From NCBI GenBank assembly GCA_963842525.1, contig CAWJGT010000009.1, forward strand, positions 672,001 to 736,000: a stretch of 64,000 nucleotides of DNA, read 5' to 3'. Positions 51,468 through 64,000 of the stretch are shown here, in pieces. This DNA comes from an uncultured Holophagales bacterium. Its GTDB lineage: Bacteria; Acidobacteriota; Thermoanaerobaculia; Multivoradales; UBA5704. A model generated the notes under the pieces. The model ran no database searches and was not told the DNA's origin. It saw only the letters and a program-made list of their open reading frames with translations. Position 1 is the first letter of the stretch. Every line of letters starts with the position of its first letter. A program made the position numbers and the translations under genes.

Positions 51468-52218
51468 GTGCCGACCTCCCCTACCGAACCGGCGCTCGAA
51501 ACCGATCGGGTCACGAAGACCTACGGTGACGGCACGGTCGCGCTGGAGGAGGTCTCCCTGGCTGTGGCGCCCGGCGAGACGGTCGCCCTGGTGGGCGAGA
51601 GCGGCAGCGGCAAGACGACCCTGCTGCGGATGTTCAACCGCATGGTCGAGCCCACGGCCGGGAAGGTCCGGGTCGAGGGCCGGCCCACCGCCGAGATCGA
51701 TCCCTTCGCGTTGCGCCGGGGGATCGGCTACGTGCAGCAGGACGGCGGCCTGCTCCCCCATTGGCGGGTGGAGCGCAACGTCGAGCTCGTGCCGCGGCTC
51801 CTGGGCTGGGAGCCGGCGCGCCGGCAGGACCGGACGCGGGAGGTGCTGGAGCTGGTGGGGCTCGCCCCAGACGTCCACGGCCGGCGCTACCCGGCCGAGC
51901 TCTCCGGAGGGCAGCGCCAGCGCGTCGCCTTCGCCCGCGCCCTGGCCGCCGATCCGCCGATCCTCCTCCTCGACGAGCCCTTCGGCGCTCTCGACGCTCT
52001 GACCCGCCTGGAAGCTCCAGCGGCAGTTCCTGGACCTGCAAAGCCGGCTGCGCAAGACCATGGTCCTGGTGACCCACGACCTCGCCGAGGCCTTCCGCCT
52101 CGCCAGCCGGGTAGGCGTCATGCGCAGCGGTCGTCTCCTTCAACTCGGTCCCGCCGAAGACCTCCGCGAGCGTCCGGCAGACCCCTATGTGCAAGCCCTC
52201 CTGGAGGTGGTCCGGTGA
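51468..52218 (+). CDS. Osmoprotectant ABC transporter ATP-binding protein (OpuBA/OsmV-like); 1-bp frameshift near 52012
   Basis: GESGSGKTT, LSGGQRQR and LLDEPFGALD; the shifted frame continues LQRQFLDLQ...VTHDLAEAF to a TGA at 52218. Confidence 0.9.
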
Positions 52219-53789
52219 AAGGGCTTTGGGTCCTTGTCGTCCTTGCTGTCCTTGTCGTCCTTTTCTCCGCCTCCCCCGCCCAAGCCGCCCCCGACCGCAT
52301 CGTCATCGGCTCCAAGAACTTCGAGGAAAGCCGGCTGCTCGCCGAGATGTTCGCGCAGCTCCTGGAAGCCCGCACCGACCTCCGGGTCGAGCGCCGGCTC
52401 GGGCTCGCCGGCACCCAAGTCTGCTTCGAGGCCCTGCGCAACGGCGCGATCGATATCTATCCCGAATACACGGGCACCGGCCTGGTGACCCTCCTCGGCG
52501 AGACGGCGTCCGGCGGGGCCGCAGAAAAAACACTGAACCGGGTGCGGGCCGAATTCCTCCGCCGCTGGGACCTCTGGTGGGTCGCCCCGCTCGGCTTCGA
52601 GAACTCGTGGGAAATCGCCGTGCCGAAGGAGCTGGCCGAGCGGGAGCGCCTGCGCACAATCTCCGACCTGGCGCGGATCTCGGACCGGCTGCGCGGCGGC
52701 TTCGGCCACGAGTTCGTCGGCCGCGAGGACGGCCTGCCGGGTCTCGAGAAGGTCTACGGCCTCCGCTTCGCCTCGGTCGAGCACCTCCAGCAGGCGCTCC
52801 AGTACCAGGCGGCCGGAGCGCGCCGGATCGATGCCATGGACGCCTACACCACGGACGCCGGCCTGCTGCGCTACGGCCTCGTGGTGCTGGACGACGACAA
52901 GGGGTTTTTTCCACCCTACGAGGCCGCGGCCCTGGTGCGCGGCGCGACCCTCGCCAAGCACCCCGAGGTGGGGACCGTCCTCGGCCTCCTGGCCGGGGCC
53001 TTCGACGAGGAGTCGATGCGCCGGCTCAACTTCCGGCTCCAGGAGGGGCACGAGAAAGAGACTGTCGTGGCCCGCGACGCTCTGCGCGAGCTCGGGCTGG
53101 TCGGCCAACAGGTCGGCGGTCCCGAGGCGGAGCGGCAAGACGATCAGAGCTTGATCGGGTACTTCCGGGCCGAGCGGGGCGACTTGGCTCGGCGCACTGT
53201 CGAGCATCTCGGGCTGTCGGCCGCCGCCCTGCTGCTCGGCGTCCTGGTCGCGGTCCCACTCGGCCTCTGGCTGGAGCGGCAGCGGCGCGGCGCCGAGTCG
53301 GTCATCCGGCTCCTCGGCCTCACCCAGACCGTCCCTTCGCTGGCCTTGCTGGCCTTCATGGTCCCCTTCCTGGGCGTGGGCGTGGTCCCCGCGCTCGTCG
53401 CGCTCTGGATCTATGCGCTCTTTCCGATCGTGAGAAACACCTACACCGGTGTGCGGGACGCGGATCCGCGGGCCGTCGAGGCGGCCACGGCTCTGGGGAT
53501 GACGCCTGGACAGGTGCTGCGGCAGGTGCGGCTGCCCCTCGCCGCGCCGATCATCCTCGCCGGGGTCCGGACGGCCGGCGTGATCACCGTCGGCACGGCC
53601 ACGCTGGCCGCCTTCATCGGAGCGGGCGGCCTGGGCGAGCCGATCGTCACCGGCCTCCAGCTCGCCGACGCGCGCATGATCCTCTCCGGAGCCATCCCCG
53701 CCGCCCTCCTCGCCCTGCTCGTGGACGGCGTCCTGGGTCTCGTCGAGCGGATCGTGCGGCCGGCCCTCAGCTCGGCCGGACCGTCTTGA
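52215..53789 (+). CDS. Glycine betaine/choline ABC transporter, fused substrate-binding protein and permease
   Basis: GTGA overlap; signal peptide; IGSKNFEE, YPEYTGT and FFPPY, then QTVPSLALL, EAA..LGM and IGAGGLG. Confidence 0.92.
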   Translation: MKGLWVLVVLAVLVVLFSASPAQAAPDRIVIGSKNFEESRLLAEMFAQLLEARTDLRVERRLGLAGTQVCFEALRNGAIDIYPEYTGTGLVTLLGETASGGAAEKTLNRVRAEFLRRWDLWWVAPLGFENSWEIAVPKELAERERLRTISDLARISDRLRGGFGHEFVGREDGLPGLEKVYGLRFASVEHLQQALQYQAAGARRIDAMDAYTTDAGLLRYGLVVLDDDKGFFPPYEAAALVRGATLAKHPEVGTVLGLLAGAFDEESMRRLNFRLQEGHEKETVVARDALRELGLVGQQVGGPEAERQDDQSLIGYFRAERGDLARRTVEHLGLSAAALLLGVLVAVPLGLWLERQRRGAESVIRLLGLTQTVPSLALLAFMVPFLGVGVVPALVALWIYALFPIVRNTYTGVRDADPRAVEAATALGMTPGQVLRQVRLPLAAPIILAGVRTAGVITVGTATLAAFIGAGGLGEPIVTGLQLADARMILSGAIPAALLALLVDGVLGLVERIVRPALSSAGPS

Positions 53790-54018
53790 CCTGTTCGGCC
53801 CCGTCCGCCGTCAGGAAGTACCAGGTCCCGGCGGCGTTCGGCTTGAGCCAGCCCTTCTCCACCATCCCCTTCAATGCCTGGTCGAGGTCGACGCCGGGGG
53901 GCTGCACGTAGCGGATCGCCTGGGCACGCATCCCATATCCAGGCTGGACGCCCCCTGCACGGTGGCACCTCTCGTGGAACCGGGCGAGGATCGCCTGCTC
54001 AGCCTTCGAAAGCTCCAT
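53767..54018 (-). CDS. Small hypothetical protein (winged-helix-like)
   Basis: 83 aa; AAGGAGG RBS; LKGMVEKGWL...WYFLTADG. Confidence 0.7.
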   Translation of the reverse strand: MELSKAEQAILARFHERCHRAGGVQPGYGMRAQAIRYVQPPGVDLDQALKGMVEKGWLKPNAAGTWYFLTADGAEQVKTVRPS

Positions 54019-55179
54019 AGCGCCCCTCCTTGAAAAAGCGTGCGGATTGTACCTTAGTGTGCCACTGCGGCCCGATCAACGTCCCCCCAGACCCGGGCGC
54101 TGCGTGTAAGTTGTTTGTTTTCAGCGGCTGCACTTTTCACTAGCGCTCCCGGGTCACTTGGGGGTACCAAAGTGTCAACAAAGACAGCTTGCCCGGGGGC
54201 ACCGCGCCGGCCGTTGAGCCCTTGGGGTCACGGCCTCTTGAAGGAGAAAACCCGAGACCCTCTCCCGAGTATGCCATCGCCGGCTTGGGTCGGCTCGCCT
54301 CGGCCCTGCACTCCCGTGAGCAAGGCGTCTGCGCCATCGCCGGCCGGCGCGGTTTCCCTCGCCTCTCACCCGTTGCTCGCGATCTTGATTTTGCTCCAGC
54401 AGCCAGATCAACGCCAAGCCGTCTGACAGCTCCTCTGAGCCTGGGGCCGCTTGGGCTGTCCCGTACCCCTGCCGCCGGCCGGGAAAACGCCATAGAGGGC
54501 CTTGCAGAGGCCCTGGAGCCGCCTGGATCGCCAGCAACTCAGCCGCGGCCAGCGAGTGGCCCAGCCGCTTGGCTCGCCAGTCGGTCCGCGCGCCTGGCCC
54601 GCCAGCAGCCTACATCGGCAGCCTACCATCTAGGGTCCCGCTCGCCACGGTACCTTGAGCCCCGGTTCTGGGTGAAGTGGGCGGCGGGGTGGCTGGCAGC
54701 GGTGCGCTGTTTCATCCCTGGATCGCCGGAAGGCAGGCCGACAAGTCCCCGCTTTGAGATCTAGTGAGAAAATTTTAGATCGTCACTCCGAGATTTCTGA
54801 GGTTTCGTTCCGTTCCTCTGAAATTTCCATCCGCGAGAGAGCTGAACCGAAGGGGGCGGAGGGGGGTGGGGGCCGCAGGATTTGCCGCGCAAAGCCGCAC
54901 GCAAGTCCGCACGCGGCTCTGGGGAGCTGCGCGCAGGTCTGCACGCAAGTCCGCACGCGGCTACGCAGGCCTACACGCAGGCCTGGGCGGGCTTGGGGCG
55001 GCTCTGCAACTCACTTGATATAGTCAAATGTCTATATAAATCCCCTATGGCTCCCCATCGCCCCGTCTGCGCTGGACGCAAACGGCCCGTCGCGAAGCTC
55101 AGGCTACCGCGGGGATGCCCCTCCCGCCCACGGCTCTCTGGTTAGCTTCCATGACGACGGCAAACCTTCCGCGCCACCA

Positions 55180-56105
55180 CCCGCGTCCCGGAGCTCATTG
55201 AAGGCGGGCTCTTACGGTCTGTTGACATAAGAGATATGCCCCGCGCCAGGCACCCTGGCTGGGATGACCACGCCACCCGACCACCTCTCGCCGCCCAGCT
55301 CCAGGCCGGCGATGCAGCTCCCGGTTTCGCTTCCCGAAAGGTTGCCCGACTCCCGCAGCCTGAGAGGGGAGGGCGCCACCCGCTCACCTGCGCGAGCGTC
55401 CCATCCCGCCGCGGTGGTGGCAACCTTGCCGCCATCCACCCGCGTCCTCGGAACTCCCTCGAAGGCGCGCACCTCGCTCTCCCTCGCCCCCATCCACCGC
55501 CGCGCTTCGCGCGGGATGATGCTGCCGACCCATGGTCCAAATTTCTACGGATTCAGGTGATCGGCAACTCACACCATCACTCCGCGCGCCAGGGCGATAG
55601 CAGCGCCACCACCTCGCCCTCTCGTCGGCCAACTCCCGTGGTGATGGCAGGCGCAGCAGGTTTCATAGTTATTCGACCGCGGTCGCCGCGGAGATGGCAG
55701 CGTCCATCCCCGTGCGCCAAGCAGGCGCCGTAGGGACGACTACCCCCCCGCCACCCCTTCGCCGGCCAGCTCCCGCGCCGATGGGCAGCGCCCCACCCCC
55801 ATCCCGCAGCTCAGGTGCGCCTCTTGTATGTTGACGAAAAGACATTGCCACCCGCGCTCCGGAGCTGCTCGCGAAGTCCCACCAGCCCGCTGACGCACAC
55901 GCCCCCCGCGCGCCAGGCAGCAGCCGCCGCGGCGATGACCACGCCCCCCGTCCGCCTCTCACCGGCCAGCTCCCGCGTCGTTTCCGGAAACGATATCCGG
56001 CTCCCGCAGCCCCAGGCGGGGACGGCGGCGCCCCGCCGACCACCCGGGCGAGGTCGATCCGCCGCGGCGACGGCAACGTCCCCGCCACCCACCCGCGTCC
56101 TCGGA
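55180..56105. repeat. Two diverged ~300-bp direct repeats preceding the main array
   Basis: GTTGAC (55221/55830), GATGACCACGCC..CC...CCTCTC.CCG.CCAGCTCC (55263/55934) and CCACCCGCGTCCTCGGA (~55436/56089). Confidence 0.65.
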
Positions 56106-56109
56106 GCTC

Positions 56110-58925
56110 CCGGGGGCGCTCCGCCGAACTGCTCCCACCCTCTATACGCTCAGCCTCTTCGCAGCCGGAGCCTCCATCCTGCAAGGCCGGGTGGCCGCCC
56201 CGGAGCCTACGGTCGTGAACGCCGGCCTCCGGTCCTCCGGCGCGCCCGCCCAATTCCCCTGCCCCCGCCCATTTGATGGGGAGGGCCTGCGAGCATTCGT
56301 GCCCCGCCAGAGTAGCTCCGGCTCGGCCCACCTATCCGACCGCCCGCTCCGCCGACCGGAGCTACTCTGGCGGTAGAGCCATCGTGGCTCCCGCAGCTTT
56401 CCGCCCCGCAGATCGGCTCCGCGCGGGGCGCTCCGCCGAACTGCTCCCGCCCTCTCTGCGCTCGACCTCTTCGCAGTCGGAGCCTCCATCCTGCAAGGCC
56501 GGGTGGGCGCGCCGAAGCCTGCGGTCGTGAACAGCCGTCCTCCGGTCCTTCGGCGCGCCCACCCAATCCCCGGCCGCCCACCCATTTGATGGGGAGGGCC
56601 CGCGAGCTGTCGTGTCTCGCCAGAGAAGCTCCGGCTCGGCCCACCACCCGCCCACCCGCTCCGCCGACCGGAGCTACTCTGGCGGTAGAGCCATCGTGGG
56701 TCCCGCAGCTTTCCGCCCCGCAGCTTGACTCCGCTGGCGCTCCGCAACCTGCTCCCACCCGCGCGAGGTCCGCCCGCCGGCGGTGACGGCGGCCGTCTTT
56801 TGAAAAGGTCGGGTGGCCGCGCCAGAGCCTGCGGCCGTGAAAGGCCGTTCTCCGGTCCTCCGGCGCGCCCACCCAATCTCCCGGCCGTCCGCCCATTTTG
56901 ATTTCCCCCGCGCGCGGGATCGGCACAGTGCGCGTGACCACCGGCCGGCCGCCCACTCACGAGCACAGTGCGCGACCCGCTCCACCCACCAGACAAGGTC
57001 CGGCAGCTTGGCTCCGCAAGCTCCACCAACCTGCCGAATCCATTTCGATCTCCACCGACGCAGCTTGACTCCGCTGACGCTCCGCAACCTGTCCCACCCG
57101 CGCGAACCTCATCGGCGGGCGGTGACGGCGGCCGTCTTCTGAAAAGGCCGGGTGGCCGCCCCGGAGCCTACGGCCGCGAACAGCCGTCCTCCGGTCCTCC
57201 GGCGCGCCCACCCAATTCCCCGGCCGCCCGCCCATTTGATGGGGAAGGCCTGCGAGCGTTCGTGCCCTGCCAGAGAAGCTCCGGCTCGGCCCACCTATCC
57301 GCCCACCCGCTCCGCCGACCGGAGCTACTCTGGCGGTGAGCCATCGTGGTCCCCGCAGCTTTCCGCCCCGCAGATCAGCTCCGCGCGGGGCGCTCCGCCG
57401 AACTGCTCCCACCCTCTCTGCGCTCAGCCTCTTCGCATTCGGAGCCTCCATCCTGCAAGGCCGGGCGGCCGCCCCGAAGCCTACGGCCGTGAGCAGCCGT
57501 CCTCCGGTCCTCCGGCGCGCCCACCCAATTCCCCGGCCGCCCACCCATTTGATGGGGAGGCCCGCGAGCTGCCGTGCCCCGCCCAGAGAAGCTCCGGCTC
57601 GGCCCACCACCCGCCCACCCGCTCCGCCGACCGGAGCTACTCTGGCGGTAGCCATCGTGGGTCCCGCAAGCTTTCCGCCCCGCAGCTTGACTCCGCTGGC
57701 GCTCCGCAACCTGCTCCCACCCGCGCGAGGTCCACCCGCCGGCGGTGACGGCGGCCGTCTTTTGAAAAGGCCGGGTGGGCGCGCCAGAGCCTGCGGCCGT
57801 GAACAGCCTGCCTCCGGTCCTCCGGCGCGCCCACCCAATCTCCCGGCCGCCCGCCCATTTGATTTCCCCCGCGCGCGGAATCGGCACAGTGCACGTGACC
57901 ACCACCCAGGCCGCCCACTCACGAGCACAGTGCGCGACCCGCTCCACCCACCAGACAAGGTCCGGCAGATTGGCTCCGCAAGCTCCGCCAACCTGCCGAA
58001 TTCATTTCGATCTCCGCCGACGCAGCTTGACTCCGCTGACGCTCTGCAACCTGCTCCCGCCCGCTCAAGCTCCATCCGAAGGTGGGGGAGGGCAACGTAT
58101 CCAGCGGAGCTCCCGAGAAGGCGCGCCCCCACAAAGACGCTGGCGCAAAACCCACCACCCCGCGCGCCGGGCAGCCGCCGCGGGGATGGCAGCGTCCCGC
58201 CACCCGCGCAAGGCCCAGCCAGCCGTGGGGATGGCAACGTCCCTCCACCCACCCGCGTCCTCGGATCTTTCCTCGCAGGCGCGCCCCCACAAGACGCTGC
58301 GCAAAGCCCGCCGCCCCGCGCGCCGGGCACCGCCGTGGGAGGGCAGCACCCCGCCACCCGACCCTCTCAAGGTCCATTCCGCCGTGGGGATGGCAGCCGT
58401 GTTTCAATAAGGCCGGGTGGCCGCCCCGGAGACTGTGGTCGTGGAAAGCCTGCCGTCGATCCGCCGGTGCGCCCACCCAATCCCCGGCCTCCCACCCCAT
58501 TTTGATGTCCCCCACCCTCCGGCCCGGGAGCTGCCCGCCCCTGGCTCCGGCGGGGGCGGCTCCCCCTCCCACCGGGCGAGGGTCCGATAAATGAACGACT
58601 TTATCCGACCCTCGCCCTGCGCCACTCCCCGCCTACGGGCTTCGCCTTAACATAATGAACTGCACTATGTTAACCAGGGGGGGCACCTACCCGGGCCTCC
58701 CCCCGCAGCAAGGTCCGGCAGATTGGCTCCGCAGGCCGCTGGGAGCCATGTCTTCGAAGCGCTCCGCCAACCTGCCGGGTTTATTCGACCACCCCGCCCC
58801 GCCCATCCCCCTCCGGCCCCTTCCAGGGGCCTCGGCCGAAGGCCGGGTGGCCCCGCTAAGCCTGCGGCCGTGAGAAGTCGGCCTCCGGTCCTCCAGCGGG
58901 CCCACCCAATCCCGAGCCGATTTCA
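56110..58925. repeat. Modular array of ~310-bp hairpin-rich repeat units (8 core copies), apparently non-coding
   Basis: Core hairpin GGGTGG...CCACCC starts at 56189, 56501, 56811, 57150, 57463, 57773, 58415 and 58845. Confidence 0.92.
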
Positions 58926-59028
58926 TCCCCGCCCGCCACCCCCAACCGCCGCCCGGCGGGGCCGTCCACCACCCTTCCTGCGAGTGTTCAGCTACAGCGG
59001 CTTAAATAAGACGGTTTCGCCCCCTCAA

Positions 59029-59458
59029 AAATCGCGGAAAACCCAATCCCGGCGGCCCTTTTCCCTGTGGAAAAAACGGAACTGGGTTTCGTTTTTGGAG
59101 CTGTGCAGGGAGGCGGGGGGGTCTGCGCGACGGATGAGCGCGGCCAAAACCAAGCTGGACGGGCGTTTCCGCGACGCCGCCCGGCCGGAAAAAGCACTCA
59201 GCAGAAGCGGACTTTTGTTGAATCCTCCCGCCGCTCCCTCTACGGCCTGAGCGGGCTCGACCGCAGCATCATTCGCTGCACCCGCGCCAGCCGCCGCGCC
59301 CCCCTCCCGAACCTCTCCCGCCCCATGGTTTTAACTACCTTCCTGCGGTTGCCTTTCTGCGCCGGTTAGAACCGGCTTTTTGATCTCCCCAAATCGCGGG
59401 AAACTCAATCCCGGCGGCCTTTTCCCCTGTGGAAAAAACGAAACCAGTTCCGTTTTCC
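59029..59458. repeat. Pair of ~70-bp AT-richer direct repeats
   Basis: AAATCGCGG.AAAC.CAATCCCGGCGGCC.TTT.CCCTGTGGAAAAAACG.AAC at ~59029 and ~59391. Confidence 0.85.
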
Positions 59459-59636
59459 GTAGTGGAGGCGGCCGAGAGAAGGTCTGGACGACGGTTCACC
59501 ACAGCCAAACCCTTGCCAGACAAGCACTTCCGAGATGCCACCCAGCCGGAAACCGCGGTGATCAGAATAACGTTTTTGGTCACTCCGCACCAGCGGACGC
59601 ACCTGTCTCTGCGACCCTGCCCAGGACGGCGATCGG

Positions 59637-60686
59637 CTACGGCCGGATGGCCACCTTGAGCACGCCGTCCCGTCGCTCCCCGAAGACGTCATAGGCCTCG
59701 CGATCTGGTCGAGCGGGAAGGTGTGGGTGAGGAGAGGCGTCAGGTCCACCGTCCGTGACGGACGATCTCCATCAGCCGCCGCATCCGCTCCTTGCCGCCC
59801 GGGCACAGGGTCGTCACGATGCGGTGGTCGCCCAGCCCGGCGGCGAAGGCGTCGTATGGGATCTGGAGCTTGCCCGAGTAGACGCCCAGGCTGGAAAGCG
59901 TCCCGCCGGGCCGCAGGCAGCGCAGGCGTTCTCGAACGTCCCCTGCGTACCGAGCGCCTCGATCGCCACGTCCACGCCGCCGCCGGTCAGCCTCTTGACC
60001 TCGGCGACCACGTCCACCTTGCGGTAATCGAGGACCACGTCCGCGCCCATGCGCTTCGCCATCGCGAGGCGGGTCTCGTCGCCGTCGACGCCGATGACCA
60101 GCGACGCGCCCATGAGCTTCGCGCCCGCCGTCGCGCAGAGGCCGATCGGCCCCTGGGCGAACACGACGACCGCGTCGCCGATCTTGACCCCGCCCGATTC
60201 GGCGCCGCTAAAGCCGGTGGACGCGATGTCGGCCAGGAGGACGACCTGTTCGTCGGTCAGACCGTCGGGGATCTTGGCGAGGTTGGCCTGGGCATAGGGA
60301 ACCAGCAGGTATTCGGCCTGCGCGCCGTTGATGGTGTTGCCGAAGCGCCAGCCGCCGATCGCCTCGTAGCCTGTGCCGTGCCCGCACTGCGACGGGTGGC
60401 CGCGAAGCAGCCATGGCACTGGCCGCAGGGCGTGATGGCCCCGACCAGCACCCGGTCGCCGACCTCGTACCCGGTGACGCCCGCGCCGAGCTCCGCGATC
60501 ACGCCGACCGGCTCGTGGCCGATGAGAGACCCGGGCGGACCGGATATTCGCCGCGCACGATGTGCAGGTCGGTGCCGCAGATCGTGGTCAGCGTGACACG
60601 GATGACCGCCTCGCCGGGGCCGGCCTCCGGCCGCGGGACCTCGTCGACTCGAATGTCGCCCGTCCGTGAAAGACGGTCGCCTTCAT
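59637..60686 (-). pseudogene. Zn-dependent alcohol dehydrogenase, several frameshifts (pseudogene or read errors)
   Basis: TTICGTDLH, GHE, AITPCGQC, LADIASTG, QGPIG and VLKVAI pieces are spread over different frames. Confidence 0.88.
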
Positions 60687-60899
60687 GGCCTTCCTCTTTA
60701 GGGTCCTGGGAACTCAGGGCGATCTCTTCGACGGGCGGCAGGAACGGCCGGGCCGGCGCGTCTGTCATGGGGGAGAATCCTCCCTTCCTACGTTCCCTAA
60801 TCTGACAGGCGGGTCTTGCGATGAGTGACACCCTGAAGAAGAGCGGAGCACATAGTACACGGGAGGGCGGGGAGACCCCCGCCCTGTGGGGTGGGGGCC

Positions 60900-63533
<2,634 letters not shown>

Positions 63534-63667
63534 CGAGCCTCCTCACCGTACGCTTCTCGCGGCGATCCTATCCGGCCGTTTCCCGCCAGAAGGCCACCCT
63601 AGGGGGTAGGGACAGCCCTGCCCCACGACAGGTTGCGCCTCGCCGGAAGTCACGGGATGATCCCCCA

Positions 63668-64000
63668 ATGACGCACGCAGAGCCCTTGAAGACCGACGAT
63701 GTCAGGACCGACCAGGACCGCGACTGGCTGCAGACGCCCGAGCAATGGACGCGCTTCCTCTCCGCGCTCATGCATGAGCTGCGGACGCCCATCGCAAGCC
63801 TCCGGATGCTGGCCGATCTGCTGGCCGAATCGTCCCAGGGACACCTCGGCGGCCAGGAAAGACGCTACACCGAAAACATCCAGGAAGTCGTCCAGGACAT
63901 CCAGTCCCTCGCCGGCGACGTGTCTGACCTGGCACGGCTGCTGGCCGGAAGAGCCCAGGTCCGGTCTGAGGAAGTCACCCTGGAGCAGCTCGTCGGTCAG
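63668..64000 (+). CDS. Sensor histidine kinase (HisKA), 3'-partial
   Basis: FLSALMHELRTPIASL H-box; the frame stays open to the window end. Confidence 0.8.
   Translation, partial: MTHAEPLKTDDVRTDQDRDWLQTPEQWTRFLSALMHELRTPIASLRMLADLLAESSQGHLGGQERRYTENIQEVVQDIQSLAGDVSDLARLLAGRAQVRSEEVTLEQLVGQ

Follow-up and report, generated by a model that had tools for sequence, protein, structure and literature searches.

The array of hairpin units analysed here, found in a window of 64,000 nt (the whole stretch of DNA that was studied), is not a free-standing chromosomal locus but belongs to an integrated mobile element, whose non-coding left arm (window 54060-59590) it forms. This element is a roughly 40.8-kb island (G000 C9:726060-766822) in an Acidobacteriota genome of roughly 10 Mb, G000, in which the array is one of 11 with about 66 cores by BLAST. 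The pairs of the 86-nt hairpin that forms the core of the units covary, and pairing is better on the G-rich minus strand, so that the proposal of a preliminary description of this DNA, namely selection on a folded minus strand that acts either as a processed multimeric RNA or as a substrate of ssDNA recombination, is partly supported. Paralogous arms stand beside a recombinase and genes of phage packaging, and for this reason a role in cis for the element was considered first. Our best guess, tentative and at somewhat below even confidence, is that the cores are predicted to serve as transcript-level terminator or insulator stem-loops at the element edge, multiplied by unequal recombination.

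The window array has eight cores (Table 1). Their start-to-start distances (312, 310, 339, 313, 310, 642 and 430 bp; repeat families D3 and D7) agree with those given before, and TRF reports a period of 312 with 5.6 copies at 56106-57863. BLAST of the modules reproduced the order L1R1, L1R1, L2R2, L2R1, L1R1, L2R2. The 18-nt inverted repeat of R1 was recovered in perfect form (56304-56321 / 56356-56373) and the GCACAGTGC pair of R2 was confirmed by eye in the sequence. The R1 hairpin occurs in 14 copies in the sequences searched; one of its pairs covaries (A-T/G-C), and only one of 17 arm-pair forms has a matched central position, palindromic matches being counted on both strands. L2 contributes a terminator-like hairpin which stands back to back with the core, with TTTTGAAAA between the two.

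The core hairpin itself exists as described, but its perfect GGGTGGGCGCGCC arm is a minority form present in two of the eight window copies, perfect 17-nt arms being found for instance at 56501-56517 / 56548-56564. Most window cores are mismatched at stem position 7, C.C on the plus strand and G.G on the minus strand. The compensatory stem changes that had been claimed are present (GAAG/CTTC at 56514/56548; GCT/AGC in the unit at 58839). Wrong was the view of the last two units as decayed: they are distinct terminal unit types, T1 and T2, which close most arrays of the genome with 87-96% identity. The T1 core ends the arrays at C4, C9, C12, C19, C20, C23 and C25 (88-96% identity) with an extra copy inside a remnant cluster at C8, and T1post is the portion of T1 retained in other genera. 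The T2 stem variant is found also at C4, C8 (two copies) and C23.

Table 1. Features of the island arm in the window; array units are entered as minus strand because pairing is better there.
Feature	Position (nt)	Strand	Basis
Left junction, attL-like core ACGTCCCCCCAGACCCGG	54060-54077	plus	similarity to same-genus genomes stops at about 54000-54057
LS, left-terminal non-coding segment	54060-54780	plus	sharp common start in six loci
M1/M2, non-coding spacer segments common to other array loci	54781-56105	plus	BLAST
Six regular units (L module, 86-nt core, R module)	56106-58055	minus	repeat search, TRF, BLAST, covariation
Cores of the six regular units	56183-56268, 56495-56580, 56805-56891, 57144-57230, 57457-57543, 57767-57853	minus	
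R1 hairpin, 18-bp arms, ~34-nt loop	56304-56373; more copies 56617-56685, 57267-57336, 57580-57648	none	
L2 terminator-like hairpin with T-run	56774-56792; second copy 57736-57754	plus	consensus scan only
Terminal unit T1 (T1pre, T1 core 58409-58494, T1post)	58056-58838	minus	BLAST
Terminal core T2, stem variant GGCCCCGCT / AGCGGGCC	58839-58925	minus	
RT, right-terminal segment (two copies, 58926-59390 and 59391-59590), ends ...ACGTTTTTGGTCACTC	58926-59590	plus	
Island cargo, first part: split ADH gene (minus), HAD and P-type ATPase fragments; island continues to G000 C9:766822	59591-64000		

Each 86-nt core consists of a G+C-rich stem of 18 bp in which one mismatch is conserved, a helix of two pairs, a conserved internal loop (GGAGGA.CGGAGG) and a small terminal stem-loop of variable length, the core loop of relatives being 5-6 nt shorter or 2-4 nt longer. 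Of the 1957 cells in the core alignment, 91.8% are paired. Evidence of selection for pairing comes from 11 of 24 pairs which change on both sides (73 cells), a score that none of 500 shuffles reaches; slid registers of the alignment attain at most 0.054 vs 0.162. Of the 82 aligned cores, 64 come from a single genome as paralogues, and the number of covariation events is therefore smaller than that of the counted cells. A G.G mismatch (columns 27-87) is kept in 63 of the 82 copies, and other genera have a bulged base instead.

As had been noticed for several mismatches, wobble pairs favour the minus strand: with the terminal pair left out we counted 59 G.T pairs there vs 18 on the plus strand, an asymmetry which could partly reflect strand-biased mutation. 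RNAalifold gives -21.9 kcal/mol for the minus and -7.4 for the plus strand. However, the whole unit folds better than shuffled sequences on both strands (z -3.7 minus, -4.9 plus) and therefore energy alone picks no strand. The described strand bias is real, the plus strand being C-rich with a GC skew of -0.18 to -0.22 over 55001-59000.

That the arm belongs to an insertion can be seen from the empty site. The island is absent from three to four same-genus genomes, and similarity to these picks up again at G000 C9:766820. In G001, G004 and G005 an ABC-transporter gene is followed within about 20-40 bp by the G000 C9:766820 sequence, while the empty site of G002 aligns poorly. The right junction is an imperfect direct repeat of the left one (13 of 18 positions match by manual count), and the empty site bears the related sequence ACGTCTC(G/C)CGCCACCC. 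Among the loci this test succeeded at the one in the window only; at the C1 prophage it failed because the relatives differ there. The 40.8 kb could also be two adjoining elements.

The cargo of the island is respiratory and metabolic. No integrase had been seen near the array, which is true inside the window; the integrase of the insertion lies about 35 kb further on, past the window end. It is a P4-type tyrosine integrase at the far end of the island (C9:765312-766609), split over two frames, with the domains Arm-DNA-bind_3, Phage_int_M and Phage_integrase. Seven copies of this integrase type were found, and for five of them an LS-bearing array of constant relative orientation stands 30-45 kb away on the contig. 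A search next to the six other P4-type integrases did not recover the att-like core of the window island, and the conserved right ends of the six corresponding islands stop at a REP-like hairpin and then diverge.

On the array side, BLAST matches of LS start at 54060-54080 in C12, C25, C4, C23 and C19, with alignments rich in 1-2-nt indels, and M1a lies left of the arrays also at the prophage loci C1, C8, C9 and C20. Each RT copy holds a AAAACGGAAC...GTTTCGTTTT palindrome (59073-59096 and 59433-59456). RT ends at the same point at all loci; in the prophages the Xer-like gene comes after it, separated by a variable stretch. The RT right-terminus motif is restricted to array loci and absent from the prophage far ends; the search with the left-terminus motif was too loose and mostly caught an unrelated REP family.

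In G000 the core arrays are confined to 11 loci, all of them arms of mobile elements, and within each array the cores are directly oriented. Unit sizes range from 227 to 340 bp, and all four L x R combinations are found across the cores of the genome. A search with a covariance model detected the core in 13 of 92 family genomes, belonging to three of 11 genera, with at least 48 cores in G000 and 1-10 in each of the others. In other genera the arm is one unit (L1, core, T1post, RT); in this genus it has multiplied to 4-11 units, which include several module variants. Paralogous arrays differ in copy number and module order, and so do soil contigs.

At four other loci the same arm precedes an Xer-like recombinase, a terminase and a portal gene, and these elements are prophages (integrase phrog_1, 1.8e-33; TerL phrog_2, 1.6e-9; portal phrog_113, 5e-57); at a fifth the recombinase gene alone follows. 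The arm of the prophage loci sits between the element end and the Xer-like gene, with phage genes beginning after RT about 0.7 kb past the last core and left boundaries in M1a or LS, and it has the same C-rich strand bias as the phage. The Xer-like gene has five full copies in G000, each at 0.4-4 kb from the end of an array, and in G010, which belongs to another genus, all five such genes lie within about 1-4 kb of a core. A contig of IMG/VR has its start within the arm, followed by int, terS, terL and portal; the exact core pattern was not found in this database. Among 22 loci from a TerL search of IMG/VR, L022 holds arm segments and one closer relative, L023, none. Two types of elements with different integrases carry the arm, the P4-type tyrosine integrase on one side and a large serine recombinase at the C1 prophage on the other. 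Comparing the array side of the C1 prophage with its far side revealed no att duplication but only chance-level matches of 12-19 nt.

If the cores are stem-loops of the element edge, the hairpins would act single-stranded in transcripts leaving the element on the minus strand, which is also how the ADH gene of the window and the Xer-like gene at the prophage loci are oriented. The hairpins may stop, insulate or stabilise these transcripts. In L2 units the core and the second hairpin would flank the TTTTGAAAA tract like back-to-back terminators, and the array form could be a by-product of unequal homologous exchange between long, similar cores. In favour of termination, the L2 hairpins with their T-runs score on the plus strand in the consensus scan, whose stem and loop limits exclude the core itself. 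On the minus strand a short T-run follows the core in L2, T1 and 'GAAAT' unit types. GGCC and then four U come after the core in L2-type units only, while the runs are weaker in T1 types and there is none in L1; the L1-type units without a U-tract count against the terminator view. So does a promoter scan, which returned no site. Furthermore, neither the mismatch kept in 63 of 82 copies nor the conserved internal loop would be required in a plain terminator, and 8-11 terminators in series exceed what insulation needs.

A known counterpart is the sib/tI region of phage lambda, a single stem-loop beyond att and about 0.2 kb downstream of int, which terminates or destabilises int transcripts. The likeness is one of layout, with a stable stem-loop in non-coding DNA downstream of a recombinase gene, on its coding strand and near the element end. 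Here, in contrast, 1-11 hairpins are found at 1-4 kb distance, and the arm is also carried by islands without the Xer-like gene.

The main rival, which we regard as unlikely, takes the cores for folded-DNA sites (hairpin or cruciform) of the Xer-like tyrosine recombinase beside the arm. Exchange between direct cores would then excise, re-insert and reshuffle the modules, as in a gene-less integron- or NIME-like cassette system. It has in its favour that the Xer-like gene adjoins the arm in every case in both G000 and G010, and that this recombinase, which lacks an arm-binding domain, is XerC/XerD-like over its full length (full-length matches to the XerC and XerD models, also under the cut-offs; PDB matches XerD 1.7e-19 and IntI4 3.4e-9). 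The core presents a 6-bp box, a partly unpaired 5-nt centre (stem positions 7 and 11 are mismatched; other genera have a bulged base), a second 6-bp box and a loop of variable length. This geometry would resemble that of folded attC sites, and as in attC one strand pairs better. The direct orientation of all cores within an array, the varying copy number and the occurrence of every L x R combination fit as well.

However, six arrays have no adjoining Xer-like gene, and the integron-integrase model TIGR02249 matches the recombinase with 61.9 bits vs a cut-off of 265, over residues 230-289 (the last 60) only. The R''/R' boxes of attC have the consensus RYYYAAC / GTTRRRY; no box of the GTTRRRY type was seen in the core, the arms of which read GGGTGG.../...CCACCC. 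An exchange point at a fixed nucleotide was not seen either, and the 86-nt core with about 90% identity suffices for homologous exchange, which explains the module mosaic equally well. The single broken core, a shortened one, is a microhomology deletion, and the prophage junctions fall outside the cores. In its most specific form, which appears to us somewhat less credible, the recombination reading would make the cores a second, independently evolved folded-strand site: a phage-borne Xer-like recombinase that lacks the insertion specific to integrons would read the mismatched 18-bp hairpin on the G-rich strand and excise, capture and reorder non-coding modules. Such a system would be an attC/integron-like machine on Acidobacteriota phages and islands which builds its own arrays.

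Compared with integrons, attC sites and CALINs, the array shares directly repeated imperfect hairpins whose helix has a conserved irregularity and whose terminal loop varies, one strand that folds better, a spacing of a few hundred bases, and an Xer-clade tyrosine recombinase beside some arrays. It differs in having no cassette ORFs, in modules between the cores that belong to a few repeated families and not to diverse cassettes, in a core without the GTTRRRY box, and in a recombinase that fails the integron-integrase model and points with its 3' end toward the array. [quoted passage not shown] A conserved inverted repeat with few interchangeable modules, a variable unit number and the tie to prophage and recombinase are common to both, and design and recombination hypothesis of the NIMEs match the main rival here. 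However, dRS3 measures 20 bp and RS about 50-150 bp, whereas the core has 86 nt with an 18-bp stem in units of 227-340 bp, and NIMEs are chromosomal and stand beside surface-protein genes, whereas the arrays here lie inside mobile elements. In NIMEs the conserved repeat is a target of phage integration (PMC1797815); phage integration into a core was not seen here. The NIME and core sequences are unrelated.

Unlikely as well is a neutral satellite, in which only the single terminal unit would be functional and the extra units, arisen by slippage or unequal crossing-over, would hitch-hike with stems kept matched by gene conversion between arms and copies. Consistent with it, loci of other genera carry a single unit or two, the number of cores in G000 is far above that of any other genome, and unit number varies between paralogous loci. 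Between genera, the first 138 residues of the phage TerL share 93% identity, and therefore an identity of 80-89% in the non-coding arm need not mean constraint. Against it, three stem variants with several double changes coexist and each is internally paired, the mismatch position is constant across the variants, with a bulge in its place in other genera, and the wobble intermediates are one-sided. Selection on the pairing of each copy explains these features more easily than conversion alone.

An RNA role of another kind would be a multimeric minus-strand transcript whose GGA/GGAGG loops titrate a protein or the ribosome, like a sponge of the CsrB/RsmZ type, or which is cut into units of about 310 nt; we consider this improbable. 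The minus strand of 56110-58925 holds 118 GGA vs 74.7 +/- 7.2 in mononucleotide shuffles (26 vs 32.9 on the plus strand), an excess inflated because it was measured on repeated units against a simple shuffle. The internal loop GGAGGA.CGGAGG, which is among the best-conserved unpaired parts of the core, and the better pairing of the minus strand would also suit such an RNA. On the other hand, the promoter scan found no promoter-like site and the single-unit versions of other genera would sponge poorly.

It is very doubtful that the arm is a DNA site for replication, partition or packaging of the element (origin iterons, a centromere-like array, a shared pac/cos). Such a site would agree with the position of the arm 1.5-4 kb upstream of terS-terL in the prophages and with its occurrence in two element types with different integrases. 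However, no packaging genes were seen in the respiratory and metabolic cargo of the islands, a more distant phage relative (TerL 62%) with the same gene order has no arm, and protein sites in double-stranded DNA predict neither one-sided wobbles nor compensatory changes in both arms.

The weakest reading, an assembly artefact or a frameshifted repeat protein, is barely tenable: the assembly may be error-prone, with genes next door split, and no read set spans the array (four DNA runs gave pieces of it as contigs of 118-520 nt), but the identical ordered architecture occurs at 11 loci in large contigs, homologous arms were found in 12 other genomes, and pieces were found in soil contigs from four studies. 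As stated before, there is no consistent ORF, for none at 53789-59814 passes the codon-position G+C filter. The coding reading was rejected on this ground and because the lengths of indels between the copies do not fit a multiple of three, as the alignment and the spacings of 310 and 313 show; the unit lengths of 310, 312, 313 and 339 nt, together with many 1-2-nt indels, exclude a reading frame.

If the hairpins serve the element as RNA or DNA structures, they would represent an undescribed cis-acting module common to at least two kinds of mobile elements, a tailed prophage and 30-45-kb islands with respiratory genes, whose hosts are abundant, uncultured soil Acidobacteriota. A full-text literature search returned nothing on such arrays in Acidobacteria, and is too thin to call the module unpublished. 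The system is compact and testable, with one 86-nt hairpin of fixed mismatch, an Xer-like neighbour and natural copy-number variation between loci and populations. Should the recombination reading be true, recognition of folded-DNA sites would reach beyond integrons. Should the terminator reading be true, an edge signal of an element can inflate into kilobase arrays that mimic a novel RNA locus, which calls for caution in genome scans.

The array had been set apart from CRISPR, rRNA and tRNA, and indeed the whole window has no Rfam match at gathering score; searches by E-value threshold produced no usable match either. A CRISPR identity was rejected, as the sole match (CRISPR-DR16) reaches 24.6 bits vs a gathering score of 35 and the 'spacers' are the repeated modules themselves. 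Neither is it a tRNA, tmRNA or other Rfam family, judged by covariance models at gathering score; in the 11 loci ARAGORN called just two pseudo-tRNAs, both with two-letter anticodons and each at a different locus. REP/BIME elements of enterobacteria are mosaics of extragenic palindromes and short motifs, with alternating palindromes of 20-40 nt in hundreds of copies throughout the chromosome. The arrays resemble them as mosaics of palindromic units and other motifs, whereas the cores are direct repeats, three times longer and limited to 11 mobile-element arms. Besides these arrays, G000 also has a separate, truly REP-like family.

The array in the window (C9:672001-736000) belongs to a family of the source genome (G000; 9.95 Mb, 34 contigs, 67% G+C), in which BLAST finds the ~86-nt hairpin core in 11 clusters on nine contigs. 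All 11 share one architecture: in some a left-terminal segment (LS), then the spacers M1/M2, 4-11 units (a left module L1 or L2, the core, and a right module R1 or R2), the terminal unit type T1, in some also T2, and a right-terminal segment (RT). Unit spacings fall into classes of ~227, 289, 312 and 320 nt. The entire gene-free stretch of the window is also found at other array loci; the start of this arm is sharp at six loci, and at every locus it ends with ...ACGTTTTTGGTCACTC.

As the preliminary description had it, the window holds eight cores spaced 312, 310, 339, 313, 310, 642 and 430 nt apart (TRF period 312), R1 contains a perfect 18-nt inverted repeat, and module-wise BLAST recovers the succession L1R1, L1R1, L2R2, L2R1, L1R1, L2R2. 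The last two units, which had been regarded as decayed, are distinct terminal unit types found with 87-96% identity at the ends of most G000 arrays. The description of the core needs amending as well: perfect 17-nt arms do occur, but as a minority form, since stem position 7 is a C.C mismatch in six of the eight cores of the window. The G-rich minus strand is borne out by a plus-strand GC skew of about -0.2 over 55001-59000 versus about 0 elsewhere, and the lack of a consistent ORF by the finding that none at 53789-59814 has the codon-position G+C typical of the genome's genes. A reading frame is excluded by how long the units are and by the frequent indels of 1-2 nt that distinguish the copies. 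CRISPR, BIME and Rfam families were likewise rejected as identities of the array; Rfam gave no match across the whole window, and its permissive mode only a sub-threshold CRISPR-DR16 match and a chance miRNA match. The segment M1a of the M1/M2 spacers contains two copies of a 44-nt tandem repeat rich in ACGCA/GCACGC that is common to other loci, and T1post, the part of T1 right of its core, a near-perfect 18-bp hairpin (GGGCGAGGGTCCGATAAA / TTTATCCGACCCTCGCCC) with an A+T-rich loop region.

Coordinates of the arm, the island and other features in the source genome
Feature	Location	Strand
Arm (gene-free stretch)	window 54060-59590	
Core starts	window 56183, 56495, 56805, 57144, 57457, 57767, 58409, 58839	
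Perfect 17-nt core arms	window 56501/56548	
44-nt tandem repeat in M1a	window 54897-54985	
T1post hairpin	window 58574-58617	
Fused ABC-transporter ORF	window 51468-53789	+
Split alcohol-dehydrogenase gene, HAD and P-type-ATPase fragments	window 59638-60939, 61501-63087	-
Island and its cargo	C9:726060-766822 (window 54060 to beyond window end)	
REP-like element at island right terminus	C9:766730-766815	
Prophage structural genes and the 48-60% G+C block after them	C1:573000-592000	
ORF in the variable stretch between arm end and Xer-like gene	C9:~34200	
Large serine recombinase copies/remnants	C8:103041-103940, C1:~597990, C1:551962-552786	

For G000, 66 cores of at least 60 nt each were aligned. 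The structure alignment, made of minus-strand sequences, leaves out one copy truncated at its 5' end and comprises 82 distinct cores, of which G000 supplies 64 and other genomes 18. The structure tested, an 18-pair outer helix, a two-pair helix and a four-pair terminal stem, is paired in 91.8% of 1957 cells. The compensatory changes noticed earlier are upheld: both sides have changed in 11 of 24 pairs (73 cells), counted over cores that are mostly paralogues of one genome, so that independent events are far fewer than cells. The covariation score was reached by none of 500 shuffles, and slid registers score at most 0.054 versus 0.162 for the tested one. Three stem variants coexist, each internally paired. 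The column pair 27-87 is G.G in 63 of the 82 cores, where other genera have a bulged base, and a second mismatch four positions on is frequent; the internal loop GGAGGA.CGGAGG is conserved, the terminal loop variable in length. With the terminal pair excluded, G.T wobbles number 59 on the minus versus 18 on the plus strand, and RNAalifold gives -21.9 versus -7.4 kcal/mol. The R1 hairpin echoes the core (18-bp arms, a mismatched centre, one covarying pair), and for whole units either strand folds more stably than shuffled sequence (z -3.7 and -4.9). The earlier claim of selection on the folded minus strand stands as regards pairing, with that strand preferred, while the structure data are compatible with RNA and DNA alike.

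Searching the left flank of the window copy for empty sites within the genus, we found in three relatives (G001, G004 and G005) the ABC-transporter gene and, starting some tens of bases beyond it, sequence equivalent to C9:766820; the alignment of G002 is less clean. Because the flank continues directly into that sequence, the intervening DNA of G000 is, on this comparison covering the window locus only, an insertion of ~40.8 kb with the array arm as its first 5.5 kb; it could also be two tandem elements. The junctions carry an imperfect direct repeat (ACGTCCCCCCAGACCC left, ACGTCTCCCGCCACCC right), and the empty site reads ACGTCTC(G/C)CGCCACCC. At the far end, adjoining a uracil-DNA-glycosylase-family gene, lie a P4-type integrase split over two frames (Arm-DNA-bind_3, Phage_int_M and Phage_integrase domains) and an 83-residue ORF without Pfam match, which by eye looks like a small AlpA/Xis-type DNA-binding protein. 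The cargo is metabolic, with respiratory and stress genes: cytochrome c552 (NrfA-like), NapC/NirT, other c-type cytochromes, an MtrB/PioB porin, two Usp proteins, a YkuD transpeptidase and an acetyl-CoA hydrolase. Of the seven integrase copies in G000, five share a contig with an LS-bearing array, at a distance of 30-45 kb and oriented relative to it as in the window; a sixth LS array is at the end of its contig. There are six sister islands with the same ends; at the end of these the REP-like hairpin is conserved, divergence follows, and the junction core of the window island was not found there. This REP-like element (half-site ACGTCCCCCCTCTCCCGG, in inverted pairs ~100 bp apart) has hundreds of copies in G000. 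It makes up the conserved right end of each of the seven P4-type-integrase islands and is present in inverted form to the left of three LS loci, in their flanks, which suggests that the islands exploit or imitate the REP family at their termini.

The same non-coding arm is found on a second type of element. At four loci (C1, C8, C9a, C20) a tyrosine recombinase lies downstream of RT on the opposite strand, followed by a small protein, the large terminase and, where the contig continues, the portal (PHROG matches: integrase 1.8e-33, TerL 1.6e-9, portal 5e-57); at C23 the recombinase alone follows the array. The small protein has no PHROG match; its position alone makes us regard it as the small terminase subunit. 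The recombinase has five full copies in G000, each of them 0.4-4 kb from an array end. It is XerC/XerD-like along its whole length, domain and model searches found no arm-binding domain in it, and the integron-integrase model matches the last 60 residues only (61.9 bits versus a cut-off of 265). There are therefore two element types: prophages, in which the Xer-like gene adjoins the arm, and a family of P4-integrase islands, which carry the arm at the end away from the integrase. The C1 prophage is ~40 kb long, with a gene strand as C-rich as the array (GC skew -0.2 to -0.35 on the coding strand of the structural genes); its tail genes are followed by a ~9-kb block of 48-60% G+C, and its far end carries a large serine recombinase of full length. 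Such a gene, 34% identical to this one, has also left remnants that abut the left side of the arm at C8 and C1, which points to tandem or successive integrations. Between arm end and Xer-like gene a 2.5-kb stretch differs between prophage copies; an ORF in it beginning MASKATYDVFLSHASQDK resembles, by eye, a TIR-domain protein.

Among relatives, the exact core pattern was found in 11 stretches of five assemblies, MAGs titled Holophagales, Thermoanaerobaculia or Acidobacteriota. The 315-nt unit is matched in 10 of 41 related genomes (G000 included) and the Xer-like protein in nine; both occur in five genomes besides G000 (G001, G004, G005, G010, G018), strong repeat matches without the protein in G020 (88% complete), and the protein without the repeat in G002, G008 and G021. 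In G010, of another genus, each of the five Xer-like genes has a core within ~1-4 kb that is oriented the same way. With a covariance model the core is detected in 13 of 92 genomes of the family, in three of 11 genera, G000 being by far the richest in copies. In other genera a single unit of ~1 kb, L1 - core - T1post - RT, makes up the arm, and T1post is its best-kept part. One IMG/VR contig (TerL 77% identity) has its start within the arm, after which come int, terS, terL and portal; in another, more distant contig (TerL 62%) the phage genes are present and the arm is missing. Short contigs from four soil studies carry arm pieces 90-99% alike in other module orders.

The array is an arm of mobile elements made of non-coding mosaic repeats, and neither as free-standing nor as mysterious as on first reading. 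The data show an arm built on a hairpin selected for pairing, preferentially of the G-rich strand, and multiplied in this genus; it is an apparently undescribed, well-supported structured module whose mechanism is testable. Tentatively, and at somewhat less than even chances, we favour cores that would act in the transcript as stem-loops stopping or insulating transcription leaving the element, a direction shared by the Xer-like gene and the window's alcohol-dehydrogenase gene. L2 units contain a second hairpin, and TTTTGAAAA lies between it and the core, an arrangement like that of back-to-back terminators; unequal exchange would then have inflated the array. Four features speak against this reading: the mismatch is fixed, the internal loop is conserved, L1 units lack a U-run, and the copies are very numerous. 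Rather unlikely, yet the main rival, are cores serving as folded-DNA sites for the Xer-like recombinase in an integron- or NIME-like system, which predicts core-to-core circles and fixed exchange points. In hairpin geometry attC arrays are closest, but here there are no integron integrase, attC boxes or cassette ORFs; in design it is the neisserial NIMEs (PMC1797815), but here the phage junctions lie away from the cores. The arrays thus lack defining features of both. Neutral satellite expansion of one functional unit, which overlaps with both the stem-loop and the folded-DNA readings, we consider improbable as the explanation.

Beside the arm the alcohol-dehydrogenase gene is split into two ORFs followed by HAD and P-type-ATPase fragments, either decayed cargo or assembly frameshift errors. 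On the other side a 773-residue ORF fuses an ABC ATPase, an OpuAC substrate-binding domain and a permease domain.
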